Shown piece after piece: positions 1-35,632 of a stretch of 35,632 nucleotides of DNA (position 1 is the stretch's first letter; every line of letters begins with the position of its first letter). The notes below the pieces were generated by a model that worked only from the letters and a program-made list of their open reading frames with translations, was not told the origin of the DNA and did no database searches. The DNA comes from Nemertoderma westbladi. Taxonomy: Eukaryota > Animalia > Xenacoelomorpha. The position numbers were made by a program, and so were the translations under genes. Where the stretch lies: NCBI GenBank assembly GCA_032718475.1, contig JAUCBJ010003638.1, positions 1 to 35,632 of the forward strand. Reading direction: 5' to 3'.

Positions 1-3000
1 AGCCTGAATATAAACTCCTTATACTGTGGATAAACTCACATATAGCAGACATGACGGAGTTGATGGAAGATGTCCTTGGTATCGGGGAGCGATATACTCT
101 ACTTTTACAAGCGTTTGTTGATAGCTTAATACGCGGCGACGTTAGTCCAACTACTGCGGAGGACGATGGTCGTTATATCGAACCGCCAATGTCCCAAGAG
201 TAGCTCGCGCGAGTTGGGATATAGAAAATTCGCTGCTCGATATACGCGGCGTAATGGTACGTATATGGGCTTCTTAACTACTGGTCATTCTATCAATTTA
301 CACAATACGGACTATGTCGACTATATATCCTGCCCGGCGGAGTCGGAACCATAAGCTGAAATTCGAATGCGAAAATTCTATTCGAAATCGGCTCGAAAGA
401 AAAGACATTAAAGAAACAAATAAACGCGGTAACTCCAACATATATTTGGAATTCTTGATAGAAGCATTGTAACAACAAATAAATATCATCCGCGTTTACC
501 CTACCAGACGTGCGTCTTTGGTATTATTACGATAAATGCCCTAGACCCAACTAATAAACGGAAAGACATAAACATCCACGTAAACCGAAACTTGTTGACG
601 TATCACCTATGCTCACTCGGCTCGAACGATCCTGGAGTAAACCTACGATCAGAGTCCCGGAATACTCGGTCAAACCTCCTCATTCCTTAGTTGGACCTCA
701 GACCTGCGATCTTGGTGGTGTCGCGGATCCTCGCGGACTGTATTCACTGTTCAAAGATCTAGTGCTACCCTAACAATTAATCGGTAACACTCCGACAGTG
801 ATTTCTAGCTAGCCGCCCATCTTACCTAGCCGGATTGTGACGCGGACACCTAATATCACTATCCAACCGTATGGTCGTCCACGCTTAACGCGATACAACC
901 CCTCATCAAGGTGAAGGAGAGCGTTGTACGAAACGAGTTAAACGCTATTTTATAAAGATCAAAAGGGAAACCTGCGCTTGTTCAGATAAACGTAAGTTAT
1001 CACAGTGAGTCCAATCGATACACGAATTGGCCTTATCTCAATTCGTTTGGGAAATCCAGAATCTCTAAGAAGTTATCGAACTTGGACGATCCTATTTTCT
1101 GCGAGAGTTTTTGGATGAACGTATCCAGCTACGAGCGGAGGAAAATCAGCTCGAGGAGAAGCATATCGAAACGGCAGATACCTCGACCACAATCCTACAC
1201 CTTCTGATGCAATCATATTGCACCCTTCACCCAGGAGTTATGGCCCTCCTAGTAAAGTGGCTCCCCCCAAAGAGAAAAAGACTCTTGCTAGCCTCAAAAA
1301 ACTGCGTAAACGCCGTCTGCGTAAGAAAGACTAACTGTTTAGAGTATCTTTGTGTTTTAGAAACTGTGATTTTTATATTTTATAGACTGAAAATCCCATT
1401 TTCTGGGAGCGGTGTAAAAGCCTTTGCTGAATTGCCCCGTTATTTTTATTATCTTTTACATTAAAATACTCCGTAGTTGATTTAATAAGTGTAAGAGACC
1501 GTATTATTGCTGTATCTATGTTTTTAGAGGATCTAAGACCTATTTCCTCCGTATGTGTACTGTGAAAGGCATATTTTATGATTCTATGGCAATTCGTGAC
1601 GCAAAAGGGTGATAGCTACTCTTGAACAGTAGTTACTATGACTACGGTTAACAGCTGACATTCATACGTGTTGATTTCCTTTGTTCTACGGCGTCTCTCA
1701 GTTCAGTCAGCCAATGAGAGCGTTTTTGTGGCTCCTTGTACAGAGAATTTCCGAGAAATGACGCAATGCCTATGTGCAGTGCTTACATTCAGTCTTGAGC
1801 CAAAGAAAGAACGGCTTAGAAGTATTTTGTGCTGTACTGCTTTTTAGTCGTACACTAGTAGGTTTAATTATAAAGGGCATATATCCTTTAACAAACGGAC
1901 TACCTACCTGATGACTGCTGACTGATCATACATGCTGACTGCTGAAACATTGCAAACTCATAACAATCAGTGTTCAGTAGTTATTTTATACTGCTATTTA
2001 CCGTCAGTTCTTCATAATATGGTTGATGAATTATTATATTTGGAATAACGATAAACAACCCCGAAACCCAATGTTCTTGATATACCGAAGGTAAGAGAGA
2101 AGGGTTACAGATAAACGATTGTGACTTATGTTAAAGTGGTTTGAAGTGAATCTAATGTTATTTGATAGACCCTACATGAGTCAGCCTGTGTTCCTTTTAT
2201 ATGTGACTAAAATCAGTGAAGATTGTCAGATTAGTGTGCAGTATTGTGCAGCATTGTGTATGAGTGAGTCTGTTAAAGAAGCATTCCTAAAGAATGCGCC
2301 ATATATGTGAATTATAATTAAGCCATATCGTTGTGAGTAGTTTAAGTCATAACTCTGTTTATATAGATAAAGCGCCACGTCCTAAAGGAACTGTTAATAT
2401 TACCGAAGGTGAATAATATTGTCAGAGATTATATATTACTGTCAGTCGAATAATACATTAGGCTTACATAGCAATAAAAAATTAAACCGTCGAACCCAAT
2501 CTCCCGGGAATATCCAGCGGGTGAATGGTCGCGCACGGATTGGTTTCGACTAGTGTAGTGAATCAAATACTTGTCATAGACTAAAAAGCGATTTATTATC
2601 TAGAAGACATTCTAATTTGGCGGGTTAAACTGCCAAAGGTCTGAAAGCGCGAACAGCTGATTAGTGAACTATCATATGTTAGACCATATATATATATTAT
2701 ATATTGGACCTTATCAAAATAGCGGTTGTACTGGGGCGGTATATGTTGTTCTCTAACCCACTGCAATTCAATAACGCAAAGCCGCGTTTACTGTACAGCA
2801 GCACGTAATATATTTGATACTTATTATACTAACTAAACTAACAAACCGCAAGGCCTACTTACCGAAATAAATTAACTTTCAGTTAAATACAATATACTTG
2901 TTTGCTCTGTAAAAATTTTAATTAAAAACAATCCTGCCATTTAATATACCTAATTAGCATGGTTGCGTAAGCAGTATGAATTGGAATGAAATTGTGAAAT

Positions 3001-3639
3001 AATTTATTTAAACTATTATGTACATTTAGATTAAATAATAATACAGTAAGTTGGCCTACAGAAATAAACATTGATATTCGGAACAGTAAAACAATTATTT
3101 ATTTCATTCATTCAACTAACCAGAGAGACTCATAGCTCCAGTGAATATTAACATCCCGACGTTACTTTAGTAATAATATTAATGTCATTGAACCCGATAC
3201 ACACACACCTCCAATCAGCCAGTTCAATGGAGAGTGAGTGAATGGATGGCTACTAGCAGCAGCAGCAGTCTGCCTCTTACAAGCAAGGCTGACTGAATAC
3301 CTCAAGTGTTGCTGGGAATCAAGCCAACTTGGATGTTAACCAATAAATGAGCAGTATTTAATGAGAATACATTTTTTATGCCGGTTTAATTACTTTAGAT
3401 CAATTAAAGACACGATTATTAAAGCAAATCACTTGAACTAATTAAAAACTATAATAGAATGGAGTATGCGGATTACATCTGTATATTTTTTAAGTATAAT
3501 TATTGAAGTCTTATACTGTAAAACAATTAATTTCCTTTAAAAGGCAGGTTGAAAATGGTGTTTTTACCGTAATCAACTTAATTAACTAATTAACTGCTAT
3601 TATCTTAGCTTCTCGAAGGCCACACGGAAATTCTACTTG

Positions 3640-3810
3640 GAAAATTTCTAAACTTTTGCCATACAACATGTGTACCAAGTTTGGATAGATTTCATCAAAG
3701 ATTGGCCGAGTTATTAACGTTTAAAATTGAACACGACAGAACGACAGAACGACAGGTTGATTAATGGTACCACTACGCTAAGGCTCACTCACTTCGTGGC
3801 TCGCCCCACA
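3640..3810 (+). mobile_element. Possible fragment of a non-autonomous Helentron/DINE-like repeat
   Basis: catgtgtaccaagtttggatagatttcatc, then a short (acgacaga)n run at ~3732-3755 and a gctcactcacttcgtggctcgcc end. This resembles the layout of DINE/HINE elements; recognised by resemblance only. Confidence 0.25.
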
Positions 3811-4035
3811 AGAAGGGTAGAAGAGCAAAGTTAAATTAGATATATTACATACAACAAATAATTGTGCGTTGTTATACTGTACGTACGTACATATAAATAG
3901 TTCCAACACGAAAGTGAATGCTCTCAATTTATTCACAGTATATTTTAGGTCCAAAAATACATTTGATTAGAAGTGCTAATTTATTTATTAATTTGGAATT
4001 TTTTGTAGTTCTCTACACACTAGAGCCTTTATAGT

Positions 4036-7000
4036 TTATATTTCAACTGAGCTAAATCGTTTAGAGTCCAATATATATTTTGATACTGCATTAATAAGTT
4101 TGTTCAGATCCTTACATTTCTGGCCGTATAGGATTGATTTTAAGGTGATTGGTAAGTTTAGTGAGTTTAATTTGTCAACTAGGTTATGGCGGTGACTGGT
4201 GAATTCGGTGCATGAAAAGAAAAAGTGGTCTGGTGTTTCTCTGGTATCTAATTGGCAGAACGCACACGTAGGGTCATCACTCAGGTGTCTCTTAACCATA
4301 TGGTCTGCAAGACAACTACGTTCCAGGCGTATCTGGGCCAGAATAATCTGCACCGTTCGCGTGCCGGCATTAAAATAAGGATTGTCCTTTATAGTATTGG
4401 ACAAACTGGATTTAAGTAAATGTGGCAACTTTGCCTGCATAGTAGGTGAAAGTGAGTTCCAGGCACTGGTTGTTGAAGGGAAAAACGAGTTAAGATACAG
4501 TGATTTATGTGCCGAGAATTAGGTAAAATTTGTTTCGTTTCGAAGTTGGTATCTGTGTCCGTCACCTACCTGGGGTGGCAGGAGGTCAGTCAGGTATGCT
4601 GGGGCATGGCCGTGCACTATTTTACTCAGTGTTACCAAACAGTTGTTATTCCGGCGAGTAGATAAAGGTTGTATATTACACTCGTCGTACAACTTGACGT
4701 GTGATGTTCCCCGTGGTGCCCCAGTTGCCACACGTAAAACTTGCAACTCGACGTCATCGAGTGCATCTGACTGTTCCTTTGTAATATTACACCAGACAAC
4801 ATTACTATATTCTATGACCGGTCTAATATATGTTTTGTATATGGTCAGTATGGTCTGCCGTGGTAGCTTGTACTTTAGGCATTTTAAGGTTGCTAACTGT
4901 GGTGCTACCTTATCTAAGATATGTGAAACATGATCGGCCCAGGTAAGTGTAGAATTAAGTACTACCCCTAGATGCTTGTGTGTATCTACATTATCGAGCT
5001 GTTCGCCCATGAGATATAGGCTATGCTGTAGATGTGATTTGTTGGCTGGGATGGTCATAGTATGAGTTTTATCTGGATTAAATTTAACAAACCAATTGCA
5101 GGCCCACCTGTGGAGACTATTAAGTTCTGAATTCATAAAATGAGCAGAAACTGCAGGATGGGCAATTATACTGTAGATAGTAGTGTCATCTGCAAAAAGT
5201 GATACATTAGCTAACAGGACAGAGACTAGATCGTTGATATAAACTAGAAACAGCAAAGGTCCGAGGATACTTCCTTGGGGGACCCCCGCTTCGATCAGCC
5301 TTAGAGTTAGCACTGATTCTTTTCCATCATGTACAACCCTAAGAAATCTATTGTTCAAATAATCATAAAACCAGTTAAGGAGGTTCCCACGAATCCCCGC
5401 TCGATGTAGTTTGTATACCAGACCCCGGTGCCAGACTCGGTCGAAGGCTTTCGAAATATCACAGAAAATTATACGAACACCATCGCCCTCGTCCCAGGTC
5501 TGGCACCAGGAATGGTATAAATGGAGCAACTGAAAGACACAGCTGTCGCCCCTAATGAAACCTGATTGATTTTTGCATATTTTTGCCCTTATAAAGTTCC
5601 ACAGGTACTTTTTGACGACGGATTCAAATAATTTCGATAAGCAACATAAAAGTGAAATCGGTCTGTAATTTGAGCTTAAATGAGGTTCGTTTTTTTTATA
5701 GACTGGTATAACGTTACTGGTCTTCCAGCAGTCCGGGAAAATTCCTAAACGTAGAGACAAATTGAAAAGTGTGAGCAGAATAGGAATCAATACCGGAGCT
5801 AGGAATTTAATTGTTATATTGCCTATACCATCTGGACCTATAGCTTTATTAGGATTAAGGTCCTTAATTGCCTCAGCTATATCCTCATGGGTTAGTTCAA
5901 TATCTTCTAATAACGCTTCAGATTCTACCTGGTGATTGGTATTATTGGTATTGATACCGAAAGTTCCAATATGCTGACTATCTGGAGTACCAAGAGTACC
6001 AATAGGATGACTAGTACCTGGAGTACCGAAGGTTCCAATAGGCTGACTTCCTGGAGTACCAATAGGATGACTAGTACCTGGAGTACCGAAGGTTCCAATA
6101 GGCTGACTTCCTGGAGTACCAATAGGATCACTAGTACCTGGAGTACCGAAGGTTCCAATAGGCTGACTTCCTGGAGTACCAATAGGATCACTAGTACCTG
6201 GAGTACCGAAGGTTCCAATAGGCTGACTACCTGGAGTACCAATAGGATGACTAGTACATGGAGTACCGAAGGTTCCAATAGGCTGACTTCCTGGAGTACC
6301 AATAGGATGACTAGTACCTGGAGTACCGAAGGTTCCAATAGGCTGACTTCCTGGAGTACCAATAGGATGACTAGTACCTGGAGTACTGAAGGTTCCAATA
6401 GGCTGACTACATGGAGTACCGAATGTTCCAATAGGTTGACTACCTGGGGTACCGAAGGTTCCAATAGGCTGACTTCCTGGAGTACCAATAGGATGACTAG
6501 TACCTGGAGTACTGAAGGTTCCAATAGGCTGACTTCCTGGAGTACCGAGTGTTCCAATAGGCTGACTTCCTGGAGTACCAATAGGATGACTAGTACCTGG
6601 AGTGCCGAAGGTTCCAATAGACTGACTTCCTGGAGTACCAATAGGATGACTAGTACCTGGAGTACCGAAGGTTCCAATAGGCTGACTTCCTGGAGTACCA
6701 ATAGGATGACTAGTACCTGGAGTACCGAAGGTTCCAATAGGCTGACTTCCTGGAGTACCAATAGGATGACTAGTACCTGGAGTACCGAGTGTTCCAATAG
6801 GCTGACTACCTGGAGTACCGAATGTTCCAATTGGTTGACTACCTGGAGTACTAATAGGATGACTAGTACCTGGAGTACCGAAGGTTCCAATAGGCTGACT
6901 TCCTGGAGTACCAATAGGATGACTAGTACCTGGAGTACCGAAGGTTCCAATAGGCTGACTTCCTGGAGTACCAATAGGATGACTAGTACCTGGAGTACCG

Positions 7001-8187
7001 AGTGTTACAATAGGCTGACTACCTGGAGTACCGAATGTTCCAATTGGTTGACTACCTGGGGTACCGAAGGTTCTATTAGGCTGACTACCTGGAGTACCAA
7101 GAGTACCAATAGGATGACTAGTACCTGGAGTACCGAATGTTCCAATAGGCTGGCTACCTGGAGTACCGAAGGTTCTATTAGGCTGACTACCTGGAGTACC
7201 AAGAGTACCAATAGGATGACTAGTACCTGGAGTACCGAATGTTCCAATAGGCTGGCTACCTGGAGTACCGAAGGTTCTATTAGGCTGACTACCTGGAGTA
7301 CCAAGAGTACCAATAGGATGACTAGTACCTGGAGTACCGAATGTTCAAATAGGCTGACTACATGGAGTGCCAAAAGTACCAATAGTCTGACTACCTGGAG
7401 TACCAAGAGTACCAATAGGATGACTAGTACCTGGAGTACCGAATGTTCCAATAGGCTGGCTACCTGGAGTACCGAAGGTTCTATTAGGCTGACTACCTGG
7501 AGTACCAATAGGATGACTAGTACCTGGAGTACCGAATGTTCCAATAGGCTGACTACATGGAGTGCCAAAAGTACCAATAGTCTGACTACCTGGAGTACCA
7601 ATAGGATGACTAGTACCTGGAGTACCGAAAGTTCCAATAGGTAAACGCACAGATGGAATGTGCTTAACTAAATTAGTTATATGTGACTGCTCGGCAAAAA
7701 ATGTACTTAAGCATTCAGCCTTGTCTTGGGCCTCTGTATGGACCTTATCGCCGTCAATTAAGAATGGTATGCGTAGTGTTTTAACACGACCGAGGGTAGC
7801 ATTAACGACACTGTACCACTTCTTTGGGTTAGACCTTGTACCATCCTGCAGCTGACTATATAAGATTTTATCATGTTCTCTTTTTGCAACTTTAACTTGT
7901 TCTTGCACATAATTACGAAAATGTCTAAATTGTTTCCAGGACTTCGAATTGTCTACCGTACCTTTTGCCCTACTATGAAGCTTTTCCCTACGGCGGAACA
8001 ACGCCCGTAGGTTAGCATTAATCCAAGGTGGGTCTGACTGACGTGTTTTAACTACTTTATTTTTAATAAATTGAGTTCTACCTTCGATAAGTACCCGAGT
8101 AAGTTCTTTTGCTAGCATATTTGGGTCGTTCTTTATAACATCATTGAAACATGTATTTGAATCCACCCACATAGTTACTGTAACCAC
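4036..8187 (-). pseudogene. LINE ORF2, C-terminal part: linker, in-frame tandem repeat, reverse transcriptase and C-terminal CCHC domain
   Basis: ORFs 7345..8187, 4519..5790 and 4036..4440 share one frame, broken only by TGA at 7345-7347 and TAA at 4519-4521. Manual translation gives PPWIN, NPKKWY, KAECLSTFF, LEDIELTHEDIAEAIKDLNPNKAIGPDGIG, NYRPISLL, DISKAFDRVWH, GVPQGSILGPLLF, LFADD, HKHLGV, SFFPSTTSAWNSL and CAFC...ETPDHFFFSC. Confidence 0.95.
5955..7641 (-). repeat. Coding minisatellite inside ORF2, 60-nt main unit made of 27+9+24-nt modules, encoding (GTPGSQPIGTFGTPGTSHPI)n
   Basis: Plus-strand unit aataggatgactagtacctggagtacc-gaaggttcc-aataggctgacttcctggagtacc. An identical 17-mer, taccgaaagttccaata, sits at both ends (5955-5971 and 7623-7639), 1668 nt apart. 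Confidence 0.97.
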
Positions 8188-9136
8188 GCCAATCAGCAGT
8201 TTTATATAACCAATGCGTGCGTGAATGTAACGGGGGTTTTTTTATGTTAAAATTAAATATAGCTAAGGTTGGGCAGTGATCAGAAACCTCCCGAACAGGA
8301 TCACCGAAAAACAACTTATTTGGTACTTGAGAGGAAGATAAAAATGGATGAAGGTCAGAAAAAATTAGATCAATACAGGATCCAGACGCCGGTCTAGTAA
8401 TTTTGTTAATAAATTGTTTGGCATTTAAGGAGCAGCATAATTGTTGTATAATTAGTGGAGCGGAATTTAGACAATCGGTGTTAAAGTCTCCCAAAAGTAT
8501 AAAACCACTATATTTCTGTGATTGAAGTACAGTAGTGATTTTATCTTGTAGGTCAAGCCAGAACGCCTGAGAGGGGCACGTTGGAGTGTACCCGCACACA
8601 AATAATATTTTGAGTTTATTAACCCAGACATCAATAAATATTAATTCACAATTTGATGTGGAGACATTATATTTGGGTCGGTTAATATGTGGGAGGTCTT
8701 CCCTTATGAGAAATCCTACTCCACCATATCCTGAATTATCACTCCGTGGATTAACATACAAACGATATCCCGGGAACTTTTCCTCCAGTTGCTCACTTTT
8801 ACATGTATTCTTTTTAAGCCAAATTTCAGACAGTGCAATAATATCACATTCCTTTTCATTGAAGAAATTGTTCAAGGAATCGATTTTAAAATTTGGATTT
8901 TCTGTTGGAAATAAACTACGTACATTGAGGTGAGCAATATTAAAAGGCCCGGGATTTTGTTCAATATCACCGGAAAGCAATAACCTGTGTGTTGGGACTA
9001 ACGATAAATATATATTTTGAACACATCCACAAATATACGACCTACGCTGGTTAAATGGTGTGGAAAAACAATTCATTGTGCTGCCGGTCAGCGACTCCAC
9101 CACCGCCCAGGAGTTGTCAAAAACTAAGAATTTTAA
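8141..9136 (-). pseudogene. LINE ORF2, N-terminal part: 2A-like motif and APE-type endonuclease
   Basis: Motifs HLNVRSL, DIIALSEIWL, GYGGVGFLIR, ILLGDFN, SCIDLIFS, SDHCP and WLYKTADW. A frameshift near 8145-8185 separates it from the downstream ORF2 frame. Confidence 0.93.
8945..8986 (-). other. 2A-like (StopGo) ribosomal skipping motif RLLLSGDIEQNPG|P
   Basis: Exact match to the D(V/I)ExNPGP consensus with the usual upstream LLLxG, directly before the endonuclease domain. Confidence 0.9.
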
Positions 9137-9562
9137 TTAAAATTAAAATTACGATTACGAAAATTAAAACAACTCTGAAAATTCAGAGTATTAAGACGTG
9201 AGAGAACTGGTCGATGGAGGTGCCAATCGGCAGCACACAATACAATTATGAAAAGACTGCGGAGAGGAAGCCACCAAAGCGCCCAGGGTAATACGCAAAT
9301 GTCCGTCAATAGGTTTAAGATACAGTACATAACATTTTGTTCAAATGGTGGAGTTTTTAGATAACAAAACCCTATTTTATATAAAGTTAATAAGCTGTTG
9401 CTTGGCTGGAAATTCAGGCCACAAGCAAACAAGGTACTTAGAAGTAAAGTTTCTAAAAGTTTCTTTGGACCTACACCTAATATAAAACTTCGTAATCCTA
9501 CATTGGATAATTCCATTCCAAACACAGGCTCGAGTACCAGTCAGTAGCCCTTTTCCCACCAT
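9133..9562 (-). pseudogene. Possible N-terminal extension of ORF2 upstream of the 2A motif (hydrophobic, frameshifted)
   Basis: ORF 9133..9525 stops within a few bases of where the endonuclease frame opens (its upstream stop is at 9137-9139). It contains the hydrophobic run LLTDICVLPWALWWLPLRSLFIIVLCAA. The overlapping ORF 9377..9562 has the first ATG after ORF1. Confidence 0.4.
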
Positions 9563-9691: not shown

Positions 9692-10734
9692 TCATTCTCC
9701 TTCAGAAACACTGTTGTAGTACGATGAGCCCGACGATCTACCGGTTAAGGTCCCGTCGGTTTCTTCCTCCTCAAGGTTAACCGTGCTGCTCCTCGACCTC
9801 GTTGAAATCATGTGAGAGTTAGGAGTTCCCGATGCAGCCTTTCTCCCTTTTCCTGTAGGGGCGGCTGTTCCACGGCTGGTACTCCTGGCGTTGCTGGATG
9901 ATTTGTTGTTCCGGGGAATCCTCGTGTTCCTCCTCGCGCGATTGAATCCGACTCGTATTCGTGGTCTTTGCTTCCTGGCTTGCCCAAGAAGCTCTTGTAG
10001 AACCATGTAAGTCGACGGTATCGGGATGGGTGGTGGAGAACCCTCCGGGAAGATGGATCTGAGATCCTCAAATGTTCCAACAGTTAAACCGTCGTCATCA
10101 TCCTCGTAATGGGTGATTATAATGTCGCCGTTGATCACATGAGCACTGTAGATGGCTCCTTTCTTCTTTAGCTCCTTCGCGAATTTAAGCAGCTTCATCC
10201 GATACGGAGTTAGTTGATCTGACAGATAAACGCCTTTCGGTAGGTTCCTTAAGTTGCGGAAAGCCTCCGATCTGGCACTGTGGCCGATAAAGCGCACGAT
10301 AATTGGTCGCGATAAGCTCGCGTCAGCGGAAGATTTGGGGAATTGACCTAGGCGATGGCAAACGTCGATTTTATCGGTATTAACATTCAGATCGGTAAGG
10401 ATGTCCTTCACCAATTTCAGACAGGAATCACGCGACTCGTTGGCGGACTCACTACAGCACTAACACCATGTATAAGCACACAGTTACGACGATAATATTG
10501 ATTCTGTTGATCACCGGACAAGAACATTTCTAGGAGAAGTTCTCTTTGGCTATAGACTTCATCTTTAACCTCGTCGACTCTTGCATTTATGAGATCGAGT
10601 TTGTGAGTAATATCCTTATGAAATTTCTTGTTTTCCTCGCTTAGATCCCTGAATTGGTTAGACAAGTCTTTAATAGCAGCGCTGATTTGATCGTTTGAGG
10701 TAGTTTTCCCTTCGGATTGTTTCATAGGAGGCAT
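9692..10734 (-). pseudogene. LINE ORF1 (coiled coil, L1-type RRM, basic Arg/Ser-rich tail), one frameshift
   Basis: MPP start, heptad-like region, QYYRRNCVLIHGV, frameshift near 10450-10460, then IDVCHRLG, RPIIVRF and VYLSDQLT, all typical of L1-ORF1-like RRM proteins in CR1-group elements. Confidence 0.88.
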
Positions 10735-10858
10735 GTTCTGTATTGTGATTGGTTTTTGGTCAGCTTACTGCATACTGATTTAGGGGGGTATTTAGGCTAC
10801 CGGTACTGGTGTTTATCTACAGTTCATACCTACCGGTATCAAGCCTATGCTTTGCTTT

Positions 10859-11049
10859 CCAGAGAGGAGTTGTTACACGTAGAGGGTGTAGGGATAGCAG
10901 AGAGGAGTTGGGACATAGAGGGTGTAGGGATACCAGAGAGGAGTGAAGTTTGTACACATAGAGGGTGTAAGGATAGCAGAGAGGAGTTGGGACATAGAGG
11001 GTGTAGGGATAGCAGAGAGGAGTTGGGACATAGAGGGTGTAGGGATACC
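10859..11049 (+). repeat. Isolated five-monomer copy of the 36/38-bp satellite
   Basis: gggacatagagggtgtagggatagcagagaggagtt units matching the array at 22622-35632, in the same orientation. Confidence 0.97.
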
Positions 11050-11064
11050 TACACGTTTGTGATG

Positions 11065-11227
11065 GGTTGTGGTTGTGGCTGTGGCTGTGGTTGTGGATGT
11101 GGCTGTTGCTGTGGCTGTAGCTGAGGCTGTGGCTGTGGCTGAAGCTGAGGCTGTGGCTGTGGCTGTGGCTGAGGGTGTGGCTGTGGCTGAGGCTGTGGCT
11201 GTAGCTGTGGCTGAGGCTGTGGTTGTG
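11065..11227 (+). repeat. (GTGGCT)n hexanucleotide microsatellite with GAGGCT/GTGGTT variants
   Basis: Directly visible 6-nt periodicity. Confidence 0.95.
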
Positions 11228-11296
11228 GGGAGTGCCTCAGTTCTTAAATCAGAGTCTTACAAATTCGAACGTTAATGAACAAATTCGAACGTTACT

Positions 11297-13860: not shown

Positions 13861-14140
13861 GAGCTAGCTTCCTTTAAACTAAATTTGGGTATTAAAGCCT
13901 AAATAAATTTACAATACACAGCCCCGAAGCTTTATAATTGGTTTTTTCACGTTCCCAAAAATACGTAATCACATGCGCTTACTTTATGTTACATGTAAAT
14001 GAGCCAGATTCCTTTAAACTAAATTTGGGTATTAAAGCCTAAATAAAATTACAATACACAGCCCCGAAGCTTTATAATTGGTTTTTTCACGTTCCCAAAA
14101 ATACGTAATCACATGCGCTTACTTTATGTTACATGTAAAT
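13861..14140. repeat. Near-perfect 140-bp tandem duplication in the Penelope 3' trailer
   Basis: 13861-14000 and 14001-14140 differ at only a few positions. Confidence 0.95.
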
Positions 14141-14210: not shown

Positions 14211-16112
14211 TCAAATTGCGGGTTTAGACGCATTCCATGGCGGTTTAAACCTGTATATGTAATTTGCCTCGGCATGGATCCTACTCGAGTCATCCCTGAA
14301 CCTCCGGAAAGCCGTCACTCTCAGGTTCGATATTGGGCAAGACAGGAAATGCTCAAGAAGGATATACTCGACGTTGTCGCATACATCCGGTTCAGCTTCC
14401 CTTCTGTAAGCCCTCATGGTCGACCTGTGTTTCGACAGTCGTTCCCGCAGGGCTTGCTCGGTTTGACCGATGTAGAAACCTTCACCGTGAGCTGTACACG
14501 TTAAAATATAAAGAACGTTAACCGATAGACAATTGAAAGACCCTGTAATCCCCTCCCCCCACGGAGTTTCTTTAAAGTCCCTCATTGAATTACATGTTAA
14601 ACATCTAGCCCTCCCATACGGTCGGTTCCCCCTCTCCCCCCCTCCCCCCCTTTTCTCTACTAACATATTCCCCAAGTTTCTACCGGGCGTCGGTGTCATA
14701 GTGACGCTGAAACCCTCCCTGTTTAGTGCCTCCCTATGCTGTCTGATGGTATTCCTCGTTGGTCCTGCATAGCGCATGTCCATCGAGAAATATGAGACGT
14801 CCATGTCCCGTTCCTTTTCCACCCTACACCTCCCCGCCCCGGGTTTAAACTTCCCATCTACCGCCAGTCTCCTTAATCTTTCCAACAGTGCCCGTGGATA
14901 ACCCGAAATCAAACAATCTGTCAGATATCTGTCAACGGCGATATTCAACGCCTCCCCCCCTCCCGTGAGTCTGACGTATCTTTGTAATTGGCCCGACACT
15001 ACCGCCTCCAACATCCTTGCACTATGGAAACTCGAATACGGAATCGGTAATTTCCTCGACAAGGGTTTAAAATGCACCCCAGTGGTAATTCGGCCGTCCA
15101 CGTTCCTAGATAACTCCATATCAAGGAAAACTGCTCGTTCCGTCGAAAATTCAACTGTAAAGGCTATTCCCGGAGTCCCAAATACGTTACGACAACCGGC
15201 ATTGTATCGTTCTTTTATATCTTCCTTCTCGCTCGCCGTTAACCGTCCCGCGAAAATTCCTTGGCCGTCATCCACGAACGTGCGGAAGTATAAAGCGCTG
15301 TACAAGGAAATTAAATTAACATGCGAATGGATGCGGTCTACCGCTATAACGGCGATAGATTTACCCGCCGGTCCCCCCATCCCCAATCCCTTAATCAAAA
15401 CATAATATAAACGTTTGTGAGAAAAATACGTATGCTCGATGACGTATTTTAATAATAAAGCTATTTGTTGTATCGAGTAACCAGTTTCTTCGCATAAATC
15501 CTCATTTTCCCTTATCACGGCGTCCACTGTGGCGAGGGCTACTTCGTGCGACACCGACGGATACATATCCACGACGTCTAATGACATAAACGTTGCGCTC
15601 TCCAACGGTTCAGATGGTAGGAAGGATCGGGCCGATGCGGAATCCTTAGTGAAGTGAGGCATACGTTCCAAGAGGGGTTGTATAATGGAGTTCAAAAGTT
15701 TCGCTGGACGTTCCGATAGAGTTCTGCGCGTAGCTATAATTGGTCTCGCTTTTGGTGCTTTGATTCCATCGCCCCAGTCCAACCAGGTGTCGACTTCTTT
15801 GTGATCCTTGAAGAGGGGGTACATATATCCCTCAGATGGATGTCTGGGTACCAAATACCGTTTCAACGATTCATCTTTGATATTCATATCTTTAATAGTC
15901 CTAATTAGGTCGGCGCGAAATCTACTCGTTGGGTCATACTCCAGTTTGCGATAAGTTGATTCGTCGGCTAAAATTCTCTCTAGCTCCGCTTCCTTCACGC
16001 GAGTATCCACGATAATGACGTTCCCGGTTTTATCACCGCGGACGATTGATATGTCTCCATTCTTCTTTAAACCACGGATTTCCCTAAGTTGGTTTGCGCT
16101 AAGGTTTGTTTC
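14211..16112 (-). CDS. Penelope-type reverse transcriptase with C-terminal GIY-YIG endonuclease (5'-truncated, uninterrupted frame)
   Basis: Motifs NLS...IVRGDKTGNVIIVD, KARPII, SLDVVDMYPSV, GLGMGGP, RTFVDDG, FLDM, HFKP...YSSFH, Cys linker RCLTC...FNC and NVLYILTC...FYIGQT...RLSKH...EANYI...WN. Confidence 0.93.
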   Translation of the reverse strand, partial: ETNLSANQLREIRGLKKNGDISIVRGDKTGNVIIVDTRVKEAELERILADESTYRKLEYDPTSRFRADLIRTIKDMNIKDESLKRYLVPRHPSEGYMYPLFKDHKEVDTWLDWGDGIKAPKARPIIATRRTLSERPAKLLNSIIQPLLERMPHFTKDSASARSFLPSEPLESATFMSLDVVDMYPSVSHEVALATVDAVIRENEDLCEETGYSIQQIALLLKYVIEHTYFSHKRLYYVLIKGLGMGGPAGKSIAVIAVDRIHSHVNLISLYSALYFRTFVDDGQGIFAGRLTASEKEDIKERYNAGCRNVFGTPGIAFTVEFSTERAVFLDMELSRNVDGRITTGVHFKPLSRKLPIPYSSFHSARMLEAVVSGQLQRYVRLTGGGEALNIAVDRYLTDCLISGYPRALLERLRRLAVDGKFKPGAGRCRVEKERDMDVSYFSMDMRYAGPTRNTIRQHREALNREGFSVTMTPTPGRNLGNMLVEKRGGGGERGNRPYGRARCLTCNSMRDFKETPWGEGITGSFNCLSVNVLYILTCTAHGEGFYIGQTEQALRERLSKHRSTMRAYRREAEPDVCDNVEYILLEHFLSCPISNLRVTAFRRFRDDSSRIHAEANYIYRFKPPWNASKPAI

Positions 16113-16330
16113 GGATGTTTCATCCAATGTTGTATAGAGTCTGATTGGAGATGTGATCATTGTACACAATGAACCCGGCGCATCATTCTAGTGAAAGTGT
16201 CATCCATAGATTTGGTATCCTCTGCAGTTAGAAGCCAGCAAAGACTCCCATATACGAGTACTGGTTCTACTGCTGCTTTAAAGAGAATCGAACCTTTAGA
16301 TTCCGTTTTATCTTTAGACTCCCTATTTTT
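16113..16330 (-). mobile_element. RTE-clade LINE fragment (right part)
   Basis: LFKAAVEPVLVYGSLCWLLTAEDTKSMDDTFTRMMRRV; a diverged copy of ~17085-17290. Confidence 0.85.
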
Positions 16331-16796: not shown

Positions 16797-18030
16797 ATGC
16801 AGGGTGCATTAAGAATGCTATGCCGGCTTGTCAACAAAATTTCACCGCCACAACTCCCTATCCCCCATGACATTCGCGAGACTATTCGCATCTACAAAAC
16901 CAGTGTCCTTTAAGAGGCGTCTCACAAAAGTCATGGGCTGTCAACCATGGTTATTTTCTCCATGGGACTGCCATAGCATAAGATTGTGCACTGCACATGC
17001 TGGTCCTCACTGGGAAAATAATCTCCTGCAAAGCGGATGCGGCTTTGTTCAATTGTCAAGCTTGGGGGAACCAATGAGACACCTCCAATGTTATATAATG
17101 TCTGATTGGAGATGTGTGTGCATTGTACTTGACACAATGAACCCGGCGTAGCATTCTTGTGAATGTGCCATCCAGAGATTTGGTGTCCTCAGCAGTTAGA
17201 GCCAAGCATGGACTCCTATAGAGGAGTACTGGAACTACTGCTGCTCTAAATAATCGGACCTTAAGTTTCAGATTAATTCTCTGTGACTTCCAAATCCTGG
17301 AAAGCCTATTCAAGGCTGCCCAGGCCTTTCCCTTACGTATTCGAAGGTCCGATGATCCCAAGTAACAGAAGTCGTCCACATGCACAAGCATACCATTCTT
17401 TGAGGTTATGCACATACGAACAGATATTTCCTGAGGACTTTCAAAATTAACTGTTAAAATTTTGGCCTTCTTGAGTTAACAGAAAGACCAACACTTGAAG
17501 CAGCCTGTTCTAATGAGGTGAGGAGCTGTTCGGCTCCTTCTAGTGATTCTGAGTGTACTCCTAATTCATTAGCAAAGTCTAGATCAGTTAGGTACTTGGC
17601 AGGATTTCCTCGACTTCTTGAGCCAGTAGATAGAGGTACCATCACCCCATCATCATTATGATGATCTAAGGACATTAGTAGAACATAGTCAACCACAATT
17701 ATGAACAAGAATGGCGCAAGTGTTTCACCCTGGACGACTCTCCATAACATTTCGAATGGTTCTGTCTCACTGTCAACAGTTACTGTTGACGGTTGACTTG
17801 AAAAATAGAACAAATGTCTTTGAACCATCTTACTAATCTGATTGCTGCAAAAATTCCATCAGAAATCCCATATAATGAAAGTATGCTGAACATACGTGAG
17901 CGAGAGACTGAATCAAAGGGCTTGACGAAGTCAACAAAGCTAACAGCCAGATGTCTGTCTTTCTTTTTGGACAACTCTTCAATTATCCTTCTAAGTGAAA
18001 AAATGGGCTACATGGTCCCACGACCTTTAT
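16797..18030 (-). mobile_element. Decayed RTE-clade LINE, RT through C-terminus, multiple frameshifts
   Basis: FVDFVKPFDSV, VVQGETLAPFLFIIVVDYVL, LDFANEL (degenerate FADD), VDDFCYLGS, KAWAALNRLSRIWKS, LDGTFTRMLRRV, HISNQTLY, RIRFAG and LLKDTG...MGDRELW. Confidence 0.9.
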
Positions 18031-20630: not shown

Positions 20631-22212
20631 ATGACACGAGAGCCTCAACCTTACCCTACTCAAGCGGTAGCGCCAGTTGTGAGGATATCTAATTTCCCCA
20701 TCAGCATATCAACTCGTGCGGATACAAAATACGAGATCCCTACAGTGGAACATCCGGAGATTATAACGAACCTGGATTTCCTCCCATCAGTAATGTTTAG
20801 TGATATGTTAGAGGCTTCGGAGTTGCGGAGAGTAACAGTACAGAAGATTGTACGCAACGTGCCTCCACATATTACTGACTTTAAGGAAGTTGATCGAGCG
20901 GGAGTGGATATCGCATTTGTGTCTTGAGAGGATTCTTGACGAGGACAATCCGTTTATGGATCGGAGTCGGCATGTTTGAGACTGATACCGATATTGCGAC
21001 CAACTGAATGGGGGAAACCCATCAGTTTTGAAGACAAGAAGGTTTTCGGAAAGATTTGGCAACCCTCGGAGGAGTTACTCGATGAGTGGGATGCGACGAG
21101 TCGATCTTTGCGCGAGAACGGATATATGTTTTACGAGAATGAGGGTGGAAGCCATCAACAGAGCCTCACCTCGAAAACCATTCATATTCGAGCGCCAGAT
21201 GGAGTGTTACACGTCTTCAGCCATGCCGATGCCGGAGGAGACAACTCGACGGCACGCCATGATAACGAGGACGATTAATTCTTTGGATCTAGCTTGTAAC
21301 ATAGAAGCTAGGATGCTAACAAAGGCAGTGTGCGACGTCATGTTAGATAAGAGCATTGTGAAGATCGGATCTGGAGTGCGGGATGATCTCATCAGCGACT
21401 TTGCAGGGATGCCCAAGGAAGAAGACAGATTGCCTACGGTGTACATGGACACTAGACCCCTTTTGCTCTGGGCGATAGAGCAAGGATACTTCAGAGAATA
21501 TAATACCCTAAAAACTGGAACTGGATATATCTCATATTTGATGTTTAGTTGGAATTATAAGGAGAGCAAGAGGAACAAAAATATGGATGTATATGGAGAA
21601 GGTGATACGCCTAACATCAATGAGTTCGAATCACAGTTGAAGTGGAGAGGATGCGTATACTGGGCAATTACCTCACCTCTGCGGATAATCTTACAATATT
21701 ATTTGGCTATAAAGTCATCGTTTAATGTGTGTTTCATCGCCGATATAGTATCTAGGACTCTAAAGCGACACCCGCTATGTCTTGGAGAGGGACATACAGT
21801 TTATGAAGGAGGGAGGATGCATACCGATGTGTTTCGTCGATTCCTTCACCCATTCTACAACACCGACGGTCACTGTGATGCTTTTACGTGTGCGAGATTC
21901 AGTGTCTTTCACGAAGTTTATCGCATCCACGCAGGAAGTCTCGTTGACAGACCGTCGATGTTAACATTAGTACCCTATGAAGGGGAACGCCACGCGGAGA
22001 TTACAGACCCGGAAGAATCATAGAAGTCGGGCGCGCCTACCATTCATCACCCCGATGGCGATTCGACCGAGTCCATGATAATCAATGAGCTGTTGCGGCA
22101 AATTATCGCAATAGAGGGGAATCTTCCGAGGAAGACACAAACCAAGATTCGTCAACTCAAGAGAAGCGACGCTATGGTATGTGTAACACACACACACACA
22201 CGTGTCTTATGA
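20631..22212 (+). pseudogene. Decayed intronless DEDDy-type (WRN/EXD-like) 3'-5' exonuclease-like frame
   Basis: ORFs 20631..20927 and 20976..21278 share a frame (two TGA between them), then shift to 21028..22023, which stays open past its TAG to 22212. Ordered motifs YMFYENEG, TIHIRAPDGVLHVF, VMLDKSIVKIGSGVRDDL, YMDTRPL and W...PL...QYYLA resemble Exo I, II and III of this family. Confidence 0.55.
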
Positions 22213-22621: not shown

Positions 22622-25600
22622 AGTAGGGGTAGCAGAGAGGAGTTGGTACACATAGAGGGTGTAGGGATACCAGAGAGGAGTCGGTACACATAGAGATTGT
22701 AGGGATAGAAGAGTGGAGTTGGGACATAGAGGGTGTAGGGATAGCAGAGAGGAGTTGGTACACATAGAGGGTGTAGGGATACCAGAGAGGAGTCGGTACA
22801 CATAGAGATTGTAGGGATAGCAGAGAGGACTTGGTACACATAGAGGGTGAAGGGATAGCATAGTGGAGTGGGACATAGAGAGTGTAGGGATATCAGAGAG
22901 GAGTTGGTACATAGAGATTGTAGGGATAGAAGAATGGAGTTGGGACATAGAGAGTGACTACGGGATACCAGAGAGGAGTTGGCACATAGAGATTGTAGGG
23001 ATAGAAGAGTGAAGTTGGGACATAGAGAGTGACTACGGGATCCCAGAGAGGAGTTAGTACACATAGAGGGTGTAAGGATAGCAGAGAGGAGTTGGTACAC
23101 ATAGCGGGTGTAGGGATAGCAGAGAGGAGTTGGGACATAGAGGGTGTAGGGATAGCAGAGAGGAGTTGGTCCATAGAGAGTGTAGGGATAGCAGAGATGG
23201 AGTTGGGACATAGAGAGTGACTACGGGATACCAGAGAGGAGTTGGCACATAGAGATTGTAGGGATAGAAGAGTGAAGTTGGGACATAGAGAGTGACTACG
23301 GGATACCAGAGAGGAGTTGGGTCATAGAGGGTGTGGGGATAGCAGAGATGAGTTGGTACACATAGAGGGTGTAGGGATAGCAGAGAGGAGTTGGGACACA
23401 TAGCGGGTGTAGGGATAGCAGAGAGGAGTTGGGACATAGAGGGTGTAGGGATAACAGAGATGAGTTGGGACACATAGAGGGTGTAGGGATAGCAGAGAGG
23501 AGTTGGTACATAGAGGGTGTAAGGATAGCAGAGAGGAGTTGGTACACATAGCGGGTGTAGGGATAGCAGAGAGGAGTTGGGACATAGAGGGTGTAGGGAT
23601 ACCAGAGAGGAGTCGGGACATAGAGGGTGTAGGGATACCAGAGAGGAGTTGGGACATAGAGGGTGTAGGGATAGCAGAGAGGAGTTGGGACATAGAGGGT
23701 GTAGGGATAGCAGAGAGGAGTTGGGTACATAGAGGGTGTAGGGATACCAGAGAGGAGTTGGTACACATAGATGGTGTAGGGATAGCAGAGAGGAGTTGGT
23801 ACACATAGCGGGTGTAGGGATAGCAGAGAGGAGTTGGGACATAGAGGGTGTAGGGATAGCAGAGAGGAGTTGGTACATAGAGGGTGTAGGGATAGCAGAG
23901 AGGAGTTGGGACATAGAGGGTGTAGGGATACCAGAGAGGAGTTGGGACATATAGAGGGTGTAGGGATAGCAGAGAGGAGTTGGTACACATAGCGGGTGTA
24001 GGGATAGCAGAGAGGAGTTGGGACATAGAGGGTGTAGGGATACCAGAGAGGAGTTGGGACATAGAGGGTGTAGGGATAGCAGAGAGGAGTTGGGACATAG
24101 AGGGTGTAGGGATAGCAGAGAGGAGTTGGTACACATAGAGGGTGTAGGGATACCAGAGAGGAGTTGGGACATAGAGGGTGTAGGGATAGCAGAGAGGAGT
24201 TGGGACATAGAGGGTGTAGGGATAGCAGAGAGGAGTTGGGACATAGAGGGTGTAGGGATAGCAGAGAGGAGTTGGTACACGTAGATGGTGTAGGGATAGC
24301 AGAGAGGAGTTGGGACATAGAGGGTGTAGGGATAGCAGAGAGGAGTTGGTACACGTAGATGGTGTAGGGATAGCAGAGAGGAGTTGGGACATAGAGGGTG
24401 TAGGGATAGCAGAGAGGAGTTGGTACACTAGATGGTGTAGGGATAGCAGAGAGGAGTTGGGACATAGAGGGTGTAGGGATAGCAGAGAGGAGTTGGTACA
24501 CGTAGATGGTGTAGGGATAGCAGAGAGGAGTTGGGACATAGAGGGTGTAGGGATAGCAGAGAGGAGTTGGTACACATAGCGGGTGTAGGGATAGCAGAGA
24601 GGAGTTGGGACATAGAGGGTGTAGGGATAGCAGAGAGGAGTTGGTACACATAGCGGGTGTAGGGATAGCAGAGAGGAGTTGGTACACGTAGATGGTGTAG
24701 GGATACCAGAGAGGAGTTGGGACATAGAGGGTGTAGGGATAGCAGAGAGGAGTTGGTACATAGAGGGTGTAGGGATAGCAGAGAGGAGTTGGGTACATAG
24801 AGGGTGTAGGGATAGCAGAGAGGAGTTGGGACATAGAGGGTGTAGGGATAGCAGAGAGGAGTTGGGTCATAGAGGGTGTAGGGATAGCAGAGAGGAGTTG
24901 GTACATAGAGGGTGTAGGGATAGCAGAGAGGAGTTGGGACATAGAGGGTGTAGGGATAGCAGAGAGGAGTTGGTACATAGAGGGTGTAGGGATAGCAGAG
25001 AGGAGTTGGTACACATAGCGGGTGTAGGGATAGCAGAGAGGTGTTGGGTCATAGAGGGTGTAGGGATAGCAGAGAGGAGTTGGGACATGGAGGGTGTAGG
25101 GATAGCAGAGAGGAGTTGGGACATAGAGGGTGTAGGGATACCAGAGAGGAGTTGGGACATAGAGGGTGTAGGGATAGCAGAGAGGAGTTGGTACACATAG
25201 CGGGTGTAGGGATAGCAGAGAGGAGTTGGGTCATAGAGGGTGTAGGGATAGCAGAGAGGAGTTGGGACATAGAGGGTGTAGGGATAGCAGAGAGGAGTTG
25301 GTACACGTAGATGGTGTAGGGATACCAGAGAGGAGTTGGGACATAGAGGGTGTAGGGATAGCAGAGAGGAGTTGGTACACATAGAGGGTGTAGGGATAGC
25401 AGAGAGGAGTTGGGTCATAGAGGGTGTAGGGATAGCAGAGAGGAGTTGGGACATAGAGGGTGTAGGGATAGCAGAGAGGAGTTGGTACACGTAGATGGTG
25501 TAGGGATACCAGAGAGGAGTTGGGACATAGAGGGTGTAGGGATAGCAGAGAGGAGTTGGGTCATAGAGGGTGTAAGGATAGCAGAGAGGAGTTGGTACAC

Positions 25601-34600: not shown

Positions 34601-35632
34601 CATAGAGGGTGTAGGGATACCAGAGAGGAGTTGGGACATAGAAAGGGCGTAGGGATAGCAGAGAGGAGTTGGTACACATTGTGGGTGTAGGGATAGCAGA
34701 GAGGAGTTGGTACACATTGTGGGTGTAGGGATAGCAGAGAGGAGTTGGGACATAGAGGGTGTAGGGATAGCAGAGAGGAGTTGGTACACATTGTGGGTGT
34801 AGGGATAGCAGAGAGGAGTTGGGACATAGAGGGTGTAGGGATACCAGAGATGAGTTGGGACATAGAGGGTGTAGGGATAGCAGAGAGGAGTTGTGACACG
34901 TAGAGGGTGTAGGGATACCAGAGATGAGTTGGGACATAGAGGGTGTAGGGATACCAGAGAGGAGTTGGTACACATAGAGGGTGTAGGGATAGCAGAGAGG
35001 AGTTGGGACATAGAAAGGGCGTAGGGATACCAGAGATGAGTTGGGACATAGAGGGTGTAGGGATACCAGAGATGAGTTGGGACATAGAGGGTGTAGGGAT
35101 ACCAGAGAGGAGTTGGGACATAGAAAGGGCGTAGGGATAGCAGAGAGGAGTTGGTACACATTGTGGGTGTAGGGATAGCAGAGAGGAGTTGGTACACATT
35201 GTGGGTGTAGGGATAGCAGAGAGGAGTTGGGACATAGAGGGTGTAGGGATAGCAGAGAGGAGTTGGTACACATTGTGGGTGTAGGGATAGCAGAGAGGAG
35301 TTGGGACATAGAGGGTGTAGGGATACCAGAGATGAGTTGGGACATAGAGGGTGTAGGGATAGCAGAGAGGAGTTGTGACACGTAGAGGGTGTAGGGATAC
35401 CAGAGATGAGTTGGGACATAGAGGGTGTAGGGATACCAGAGAGGAGTTGGTACACATAGAGGGTGTAGGGATAGCAGAGAGGAGTTGGGACATAGAAAGG
35501 GCGTAGGGATACCAGAGATGAGTTGGGACATAGAGGGTGTAGGGATACCAGAGATGAGTTGGGACATAGAGGGTGTAGGGATACCAGAGAGGAGTTGGGA
35601 CATAGAAAGGGCGTAGGGATAGCAGAGAGGAG
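22622..35632 (+). repeat. Satellite array of 36/38-bp monomers, at least 13 kb, running off the window end
   Basis: Consensus gggacatagagggtgtagggatagcagagaggagtt (36 nt) and ggtacacatagcgggtgtagggatagcagagaggagtt (38 nt), with strong purine/G strand bias. Confidence 0.99.

Follow-up and report, generated by a model that had tools for sequence, protein, structure and literature searches.

An in-frame minisatellite of 562 codons in ORF2 of a LINE of Nemertoderma westbladi

The DNA considered here, a stretch of 35,632 nucleotides from Nemertoderma westbladi (contig JAUCBJ010003638.1, assembly GCA_032718475.1), is called the window. It harbours a LINE on its minus strand, which was compared, on both sides of its repeat array and at the borders of that array, with contigs of four sequencing runs from three studies (X1 to X4). 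From the 5′ to the 3′ end, the features are:

10735..10848, minus strand: 5′ end and 5′ UTR of the LINE, the portion common to the runs; contigs of X1, X3 and X4 match as far as 10848
9692..10734, minus strand: ORF1, disrupted in the window copy into two ORF halves by 8 extra bases at 10450
8945..8968, minus strand: predicted 2A-like motif DIEQNPGP before the endonuclease, fitting the motif in the accessible text of PMC3708506
8276..8929, minus strand: APE-type endonuclease domain of ORF2 (PF03372, E 1.6e-10)
8163..8166, minus strand: window-only 4-base duplication, an exact tandem copy missing in all four runs, which puts endonuclease and linker out of frame with each other
7642..8162, minus strand: tower-like linker; helices at high pLDDT, superposing on L1 ORF2p from residue 274
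~7731-7687, minus strand: helix equivalent to the PIP-box helix of L1, as judged from its position
5956..7641, minus strand: in-frame minisatellite array of 562 codons, made up of 53 modules (27, 33 or 36 nt)
7623..7638, minus strand: first member of an exact direct repeat of 16 bases that bounds the array; the sequence occurs exactly twice in the window
7345..7347, minus strand: lone TGA inside the array, in one module only
5955..5970, minus strand: second copy of the 16-base repeat
4966..5697, minus strand: reverse transcriptase (RT) domain (PF00078, E 1.9e-32)
4519..4521, minus strand: window-only stop late in ORF2, a sense codon in all four runs
4207..4395, minus strand: C-terminal zinc-binding region of ORF2 (PF13966, E 2.1e-6)
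3808..4035, minus strand: 3′ UTR remnant, truncated at 3808 by a very high-copy element

The attributes are those of a LINE: the APE endonuclease is N-terminal in ORF2, a non-LTR-type RT follows downstream, and in the runs they stand in a single frame. ORF2 ends at 4036. The solved structures closest to the RT are R2 and human L1 ORF2p. The element is putatively of the CR1 type; none of the homologs listed carries a clade name. The 8 bases at 10450 are absent in all three covering runs, where the frames of ORF1 are joined to about 345 codons; searches of Pfam and PDB yielded no match that would name it. The linker had been read as an ORF of its own. It stands apart because of the 4 extra bases at 8163 and, since these are lacking in all four runs, endonuclease and linker share one frame. 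Beyond 10848, the contigs of X1, X3 and X4 go on as (AT)n, and the 5′ flank of the window differs. Past 3808, contigs of X1 and X3 carry other sequence for about 250-280 bases, a continuation absent from the window; the neighbouring element reaches a depth of up to 6.6e5. No target-site duplication, i.e., no copy of at least 8 bases of the 5′ flank, was found within 1-4100, the 3′ end of the element being replaced at 3808, and for this reason independent insertions can only be inferred. Rfam gave no match in 1-22600.

The array (minus strand, 7641-5956) consists of modules rich in Gly, Thr, Pro and Ser. These four residues account for 72% of its composition, charged ones for 1.2%. Translation of the minus strand bears out what had been read from the sequence alone: linker, array and RT share one frame, the TGA at 7345-7347 is the sole stop inside the array, and the length of about 556 residues is correct (556 codons without the leading PIGTFG, 562 with it). 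The modules are indeed all multiples of three: 32 measure 33 nt, 16 measure 27 nt and five 36 nt, to which the earlier division into 9, 24 and 27 nt is equivalent. The offsets of exact internal repeats of at least 75 nt are divisible by three in 23 of 23 cases. The open frame itself was rejected as a sign of coding. In a shuffled 60-mer a given frame stays open 40% of the time, which makes openness alone weak evidence, and two further frames are open across the array, minus frame +1 (one stop) and one plus frame (none). The complete lack of frameshifts was likewise dismissed as evidence; only about 1.3 would be expected from the flank rate, which is an estimate, and the difference is not significant.

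The 14-mers of the array occur nowhere else in the window, and an exact 29-base motif from it found no match in metagenome contigs. A protein scan of the latter gave nine distant loci (27-55% over the best segments), which were set aside. No protein matched the array at E 0.001 among 7992 candidates, and none of the best 150 of 1.84 billion proteins had its best stretch inside it. Pfam offered no family, and the best Atlas score was 0.87 with low recognition.

That this part of ORF2 is normally short proved correct. In the 361 of 385 homologs in which the loop could be measured (24 were left out), it comprises 13-45 residues with a median of 24, and none exceeds 45; here it comprises 596. A loop of 664 residues in one homolog (P0139) was spurious: the RT is repeated in that protein, and with nearest-domain pairing the loop disappeared.

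Structure prediction, which had been proposed as a check, left residues 176-744 of the AlphaFold2 model at a pLDDT below 50, the array without secondary structure. The superposition of the model on human L1 ORF2p (8c8j) takes in 403 residues, drawn from either side of the array, with Z 32.5 and an rmsd of 3.5. Both flanks are docked as in the human protein, a docking driven by homologs that lack the insert. FoldIndex is slightly positive for the array (0.13). A simple disorder index was therefore discarded as support, and the disorder call rests on the AlphaFold2 model and the composition. The array is thus predicted to be unstructured, with the tower and the PIP-like helix still docking on the RT. 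In human L1 ORF2p, according to the accessible text of Baldwin et al. 2024 (PMC10830420; PDB 8c8j, 8sxt, 9hdo), the tower spans residues 239-440 and the PIP helix 404-419. The window protein has the same tower-RT fold, and its RT side aligns from L1 residue 452, so that the insert maps to about L1 420-440. L1, in contrast, has no insert there; identity is 18-22%, and the PIP-like helix is a candidate here by its position. Of the long disordered spacer that had been postulated between endonuclease and RT, the predicted disorder and the variable make-up have stood, but the actual site is the tower-RT junction, behind the equivalent of the PIP-box helix.

The runs tell the window copy apart from its family. 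Four of its defects were tested: the 8 bases at 10450, the 4 at 8163, the stop at 4519-4521 and an in-frame 6 bases at 5301. They are absent in every covering run, which implies that the window holds a decayed copy. (Cover has gaps at 7646-7867 in X4, at 5933-5990 in X3 and above ~8990 in X2.) The 24 coding differences listed between window and runs (8 synonymous, 15 missense, one stop) are what neutral decay would produce in the window copy, and all five window-only indels listed are gains, four of them short local duplications. On the linker side, contigs of X1, X2 and X3 cover the first 42 bases of the array without branching and at the depth of the flank; on the RT side, contigs of X1, X2 and X4 pass through 5955-5990, again at flank depth. 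Border contigs stop 30 bases past the last edge-specific base, presumably because the 31-mers there become shared between modules. No contig or read in the runs spans the whole array, and no array-free joint was seen at either border among the contig ends listed, which belong to contigs that drop rare variants. Array bins reach 21-30 times the flank depth in three runs (1399/67, 3188/139 and 5513/182), as against about 12 times expected from the window's own array; such depth is not equal to copy number and is uneven across the array (67 versus 145 in X1, 176 versus 71 in X4). The main contigs have, roughly, 3-9 times the depth of contigs resembling single-locus ones. The make-up of the array also differs between window and runs: a 67-base block, present in the window once whole and partly twice, has 4-7 times the flank depth in X1 and X2. 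An assembly artefact was rejected, as both array borders were found in independent runs. Taken together, the absence of the tested defects, the flank-level depth at which contigs cross into the array at each border and the 21-30-fold depth of the array itself support the view that the array is part of the intact element as other samples show it and is not confined to the window copy.

Two relatives are also seen. A sister lineage, about 90% alike, exists in the runs; its copy seen whole is a deletion derivative in which 5862 is joined to 8625. A separate contig of 1521 bases (X1 and X2, depth ~22) holds diverged modules. Its module exit resembles that of the window in register, 13/19 with one codon gap (p ~0.002), a match scored by eye on about 80 displayed letters in one post hoc test.

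Does the array bear the mark of selection on a protein? Read in the ORF2 frame, 10/17 of the changes propagated between modules are synonymous, against an expected share of 0.27-0.31 (p 0.005-0.015). For all array changes the count is 10/22, with p 0.04-0.10, which rises above 5% once transitions are weighted. Synonymous changes are not enriched in the other five frames, so that the excess suspected earlier holds on a formal six-frame count, and in the ORF2 frame only. The seven propagated missense changes are G>C, G>R, I>N, P>T, G>S, F>L and H>D; two of them are also present in run contigs. The changes are linked in blocks, and the excess rests on such linked changes. A case in point is GTFGT at 7366-7380 and 7561-7575: the four synonymous differences claimed for it are there, but the two sites are both copies of one block, which also carries P>T and G>C. 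The catalytic domains of the sister copy show a stronger excess, with 10/11 and 12/16 synonymous. The excess in the array is real, though modest. The idea of a protein-constrained domain thus keeps its footing in the ORF2 frame and loses some of its force by the linkage and the comparison with the catalytic domains; as a functionally constrained domain or spacer, the array is a candidate at most. Single-module changes number 3-5 versus about 12 expected from the divergence of the window copy (p 0.003-0.02). They are too few, which suggests that the array turns over after insertion.

We consider it rather probable that a minisatellite has grown by tandem duplication in a short variable loop of ORF2, in a lineage that kept copying, and is translated as a tolerated disordered loop. 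Other samples contain the element undamaged, again with this repeat at either border, and the enzyme with which the family copies itself therefore probably works in spite of an enormous flexible insert, which it would mostly tolerate. Human ORF2p can, by the accessible text of PMC13103738, function as two co-expressed fragments, which fits such tolerance. In a genome prone to duplication, a 16-base seed would have been doubled and then expanded through slippage or unequal exchange, with unit lengths divisible by three preserving the frame. Lineages gaining a stop or frameshift in the array would cease copying, because a LINE needs the ORF2p that it encodes, and those with disruptive residue changes would copy less well. 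The resulting G/T/P/S loop would be uncharged and free of stops, would vary in length and would show a slight excess of synonymous changes, and the window copy would be an older, dead insertion of the array-bearing lineage. In short, we prefer to read the array as a VNTR that arose by duplication in a loop tolerant of it and that selection has kept open to translation.

The array could instead have grown in one or a few genomic copies without a working ORF2p. Such copies would be static, would have multiplied by DNA duplication or would depend on a relative without the array that copies them in trans, and units in multiples of three would be enough to keep the frame. The two other open frames, the turnover after insertion, the rough copy number together with the missing target-site duplication, and the existence of the sister lineage would all suit such an origin. 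We nevertheless deem it unlikely: over the parts covered, no ORF defect is listed for the array-bearing form, as against several in the window copy; the contig ends listed include no array-free joint; the sister copy that is seen whole arose by deletion; and an excess of synonymous changes is confined to the ORF2 frame.

One may also go further than the duplication-born VNTR. In its strongest form, the claim would be of an autonomous, recently active family with an ORF2p of about 1,700 residues or more, its endonuclease-tower and RT halves tethered by a VNTR-encoded disordered chain of more than 550 residues. Such a chain would be selected at the protein level, would have persisted from an older subfamily onwards and would take part in transposition. 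We regard this as improbable in its entirety. Still more doubtful is a selected functional spacer, in which length or chemistry (uncharged, Gly/Pro-rich, with regularly spaced Phe/Ile) would help the element, e.g., by a longer reach of the endonuclease-tower half or in RNP assembly. The synonymous excess of the propagated changes speaks for it, as does the retention, in samples of three studies, of a repeat that adds at least 1.7 kb to the RNA; the 1521-base contig hints that the repeat predates the current family. Against it stand the absence of any loop above 45 residues in the 361 homologs, missense changes that spread freely, a repeat without any protein match and a module make-up that varies between samples, and the hint of an older relative comes down to those few displayed letters and their single test. 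Finally, the array might be spliced out of the translated RNA between CCAG-GT sites, all in the same codon phase, to leave a near normal ORF2p while the unspliced RNA is copied, but this is very improbable: there are 35 AG-GT-purine sites, and CCAG-AT in the last module might serve as an acceptor with the frame preserved, yet the array contains neither GTRAG nor a donor with G at +5 (0 GTRxG), no pyrimidine tract of at least 8 precedes an AG, GT is lost in 13 of the 32 long modules, the unit offers only AG-GT-purine cores in place of the consensus 5′ splice site that marks a 'mirage' minisatellite, and spliced RNA should yield array-free DNA copies, which are missing from the contig ends listed at both borders.

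Should the family indeed retrotranspose with over 550 additional residues where tower and RT meet, this would be a natural and very tolerant insertion site in non-LTR RTs. No other part of a LINE is considered as conserved as ORF2p. Such a site would bear on the docking of the tower and the PIP-like helix on the RT and on the placement of cargo or tags in retrotransposon-based tools, and the element would offer a system in which dated insertions trace the course of a coding VNTR. Arrays of this kind break up short-read assemblies, and similar cases may therefore be under-reported. In the literature searched, we found no description of a coding repeat inside a LINE ORF2, Repbase, Dfam and most subscription papers lying outside that search.

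The nearest known systems share single traits with the element. CR1-group APE-type non-LTR elements with a 2A-like peptide, as presented in the accessible portion of Odon et al. 2013 (PMC3708506), have ORF1 and an ORF2 with APE endonuclease, RT and a C-terminal zinc-binding region. GDIEQNPGP, at 8971-8945 and directly before the endonuclease, conforms to their pattern GD[V/I]ExNPGP and would form the N-terminus of ORF2; a 2A-like motif is present in 83/239 compared proteins (the window's own being in the count base) and, by that text, is insufficient by itself for ribosome skipping. What sets the present element apart from this group is the 562-codon repeat in the otherwise short loop; its own place in the CR1 group is putative. 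The length polymorphic region (LPR) of mammalian L1 ORF1 gains and loses motifs of 3, 9, 21 and 33 bp in frame within the coding region of an active LINE lineage; as far as the available part of PMC5872511 describes it, that region concerns few motifs in the ORF1 coiled coil, in contrast to 53 modules, predicted to be disordered, in ORF2, which is there called the most conserved part. The present array would extend the LPR idea to ORF2 at a far larger scale. PROsat, HinfI/SCR1 and Pvc 20 are likewise tandem repeats related to ORF2 sequence but, in the text of PMC9659126 at hand, host satellites containing LINE pieces, whereas the array lies in frame within an otherwise intact element. In L2 LINEs the interval between endonuclease and RT is functional and contains a tail-binding region (Hayashi et al. 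2014, PMC4176376, in its accessible part). A putative counterpart here is a basic stretch starting with Pro-Trp about 130 residues before the array; judged by the position of the motif, the array lies downstream of this stretch and leaves it uninterrupted.

A single LINE occupies the minus strand from 10848 to 3808. Its ORF2 carries an APE endonuclease, a reverse transcriptase (RT) and a C-terminal zinc-binding region. The element is of the APE type and bears a 2A-like motif, as do the 2A-bearing LINEs of PMC3708506. Its main features are:

10734-9692, minus strand: ORF1
8971-8945, minus strand: 2A-like GDIEQNPGP ahead of the endonuclease (motif match)
7641-5956, minus strand: the array, 562 codons, between the tower-like linker and the RT
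7345-7347, minus strand: the sole TGA inside the array

The nearest ATG upstream of the 2A-like motif (9078-9076) is a Leu codon in all three covering sequencing runs. The array is built from 53 modules. Of these, 32 measure 33 nt and encode GTPGSQPIGTF, 16 measure 27 nt and encode GTPGTSHPI, and 5 measure 36 nt. G, T, P and S make up 72% of its residues, charged ones 1.2%, and an exact 16-base direct repeat flanks it (7638-7623 and 5970-5955). The sequence-only reading had described a long modular in-frame repeat with one stop, and the 562 in-frame codons, the one TGA and the module structure bear this out. The open frame alone is weak evidence, because two frames besides that of ORF2 are open across the array and a given frame stays open with a chance of 40% when the unit is shuffled.

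Among known phenomena, the length polymorphic region of L1 ORF1 (PMC5872511) comes closest; it is far smaller and lies in the other ORF. ORF2-derived satellites (PMC9659126) are host repeats, unlike this array within a LINE. The literature searched, which lies outside Repbase, Dfam and most subscription papers, holds no description of a coding VNTR in a LINE ORF2; protein and Pfam searches returned no protein matching the repeat.

Is the array constrained as protein? Each distinct change was scored once against the module majority, leaving aside the 9-nt extension, between-type differences and the leading partial module. This yielded 22 changes, 17 of them in at least two modules. Of these 17 propagated changes, 10 are synonymous in the ORF2 frame (expected fraction 0.27-0.31; p 0.005-0.015, optimistic like the p values that follow, because array changes are linked in blocks). 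With two edge changes added that are probably present in the runs, the count is 10/19 (p 0.014-0.037). Other frames show no enrichment, the two other open ones scoring 4/17 and 5/17. The synonymous excess claimed by the sequence-only reading thus holds on formal counting for the propagated changes, less so for all changes (10/22, p 0.04-0.10); none of the five single-module changes is synonymous. Among the propagated changes are seven missense ones, two of which (P>T and G>C) are seen in run contigs as well, and some of the propagated changes may be neutral. The signal is real and specific to the ORF2 frame; it is modest, and the catalytic domains show a stronger one. Single-module changes fall below the 12 expected from the divergence of the window copy (p 0.003-0.02); the array therefore probably kept turning over after insertion.

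The element was compared with contigs from four DNA runs of three studies (X1 to X4; X1 and X3 are one sample). Extra bases private to the window are missing from every covering run: 8 in ORF1 (10450), 43 at 9139-9181, 4 at 8163, 6 at 5301 and 4 at 3879. All five listed indels are gains, four of them short local tandem duplications; the mutation pattern is duplication-biased. The stop at 4519-4521 is likewise missing from every covering run. Once the window-only bases are removed, ORF1 is one frame, and without the window-only defects endonuclease, linker, array and RT share one frame of ~1,700 codons. Over the covered parts, the window copy shows decay that the run form lacks. At least 24 coding differences separate them (24 listed: 8 synonymous, 15 missense, 1 stop), which fits neutral decay of the window copy. 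That array-bearing copies are dead or mobilised in trans is the rival that survives best, and it is unlikely. In a sister copy, ~90% alike, the endonuclease has 10 synonymous differences out of 11, and the RT together with the C-terminal part has 12 out of 16; this group of elements therefore diverged under selection. The sister copy, found in X1 and X2 (a loose end in X3), is internally deleted: 5862 is joined to 8625, so that the array and the linker are gone and the endonuclease is incomplete.

The 5' neighbour of the element in three runs differs from the window's, and the main contigs are roughly 3-9 times as deep as apparently single-locus ones. Multiple insertions of the array-bearing element are only likely, because read depth is not a copy number and is inconsistent across the array (X1 67 vs 145, X4 176 vs 71).

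Run contigs were compared over both LINE flanks and the array ends; none crosses the whole array or covers the TGA at 7345-7347, rare forms are dropped, and the border contigs are the following. On the linker side a single contig in each of X1, X2 and X3 spans ~8040 to 7600 at flank depth, reaching 42 bases into the array. On the RT side contigs of X1, X2 and X4 cross 5955-5990 at flank depth and extend past the compared stretch by 21, 21 and 177 letters, respectively. The ends at 7600 and ~6011 lie 30 bases beyond the last edge-specific base; the contigs stop, as expected, where 31-mers become common to several modules. We infer that an array-free form of similar depth should have branched or run into the opposite flank. 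The ratio of array-bin to flank depth is 21 (X1), 23 (X2) and 30 (X3), where the array as it stands in the window would give ~12; X4 covers the array with a single 132-base contig. A 67-base block, whole once in the window, reaches a depth 4-7 times that of the flanks in X1 and X2; array make-up therefore varies among copies or individuals.

Loop length at the array site was measured by two flank-built profiles in a pooled set of 385 homologs. In the 361 measurable ones it is 13-45 aa (median 24), in the window 596; the homolog databases, mostly short-read contigs, under-sample long arrays because such contigs break there. The array directly follows a conserved FF helix and (L/I)P motif, with hardly any homolog residue aligned within it. 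Its RT side aligns with human L1 ORF2p from residue 452, and PMC10830420 gives 239-440 for the L1 tower and 404-419 for its PIP helix; the alignment would thus place the insert at the tower-RT junction, after the PIP-equivalent helix. In an AlphaFold2 model of the ORF2 piece, read through with X and built with 93 homologs, residues 176-744 have pLDDT <50 and lack secondary structure; the flanks are confident. Both flanks (model 1-1085) superpose jointly on L1 ORF2p 8c8j (chain 274-793; Z 32.5, rmsd 3.5, 403 residues). This predicted docking around the insert is compatibility, not proof, since the modelling homologs lack the insert.

A short seed in ORF2's most variable loop was probably duplicated and expanded within a copying lineage, and dependence on its own ORF2p would have purged any lineage that acquired a stop, a frameshift or disruptive residues. 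That the enzyme tolerates the insert is plausible, because L1 ORF2p can function as two co-expressed fragments (PMC13103738) and a basic stretch ~130 aa upstream of the array is uninterrupted; it resembles the tail-binding region of L2 LINEs (PMC4176376). That the array acts as a functional tether in ORF2p is doubtful, and a functional spacer is still harder to credit. Its removal by in-frame splicing is most improbable, the array having no consensus donor.

The repeat may be old. A 1521-base contig in X1 and X2 (depth ~22) holds diverged modules matching 7574-7639 and 7591-7634 and leaves them, in register, via sequence like the window's exit (13/19 with one codon gap, p ~0.002, one post hoc test on ~80 letters). 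Its module flanks are below the likeness cut-off. It may represent an old relative that carries a short array in this position, a hint at the age of the repeat.

Around the LINE, further repeats and ORFs are found:

11068-11228: (TGTGGC)n run, after 36-base units
13861-14140: 140-base tandem duplicate behind the 658-codon ORF
14211-16187, minus strand: unbroken 658-codon ORF, faint RVT_1 match (E 0.19)
17056-17858, minus strand: remains of another decayed RT element, in fragments (RVT_1 E 0.0013; DUF6451 E 2.1e-6)

We take the C-terminal motif of the 658-codon ORF to be GIY-YIG-like and the ORF to be presumably Penelope-like. A 345-codon ORF (20986-22023, plus strand) has no Pfam match. Directly outside the LINE's 5' end lie five 36-base units (10860-11047), which belong to the family of the 13-kb satellite at 22623-35632 (132 of 170 18-mers common). 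In X1, X3 and X4, (AT)n precedes the element at 10848; it could be an AT microsatellite target preference or part of the element's head. The LINE's 3' end is replaced by a very high-copy element starting at ~3808 (3702-3810), with summed depth up to 6.6e5 and many different neighbours.
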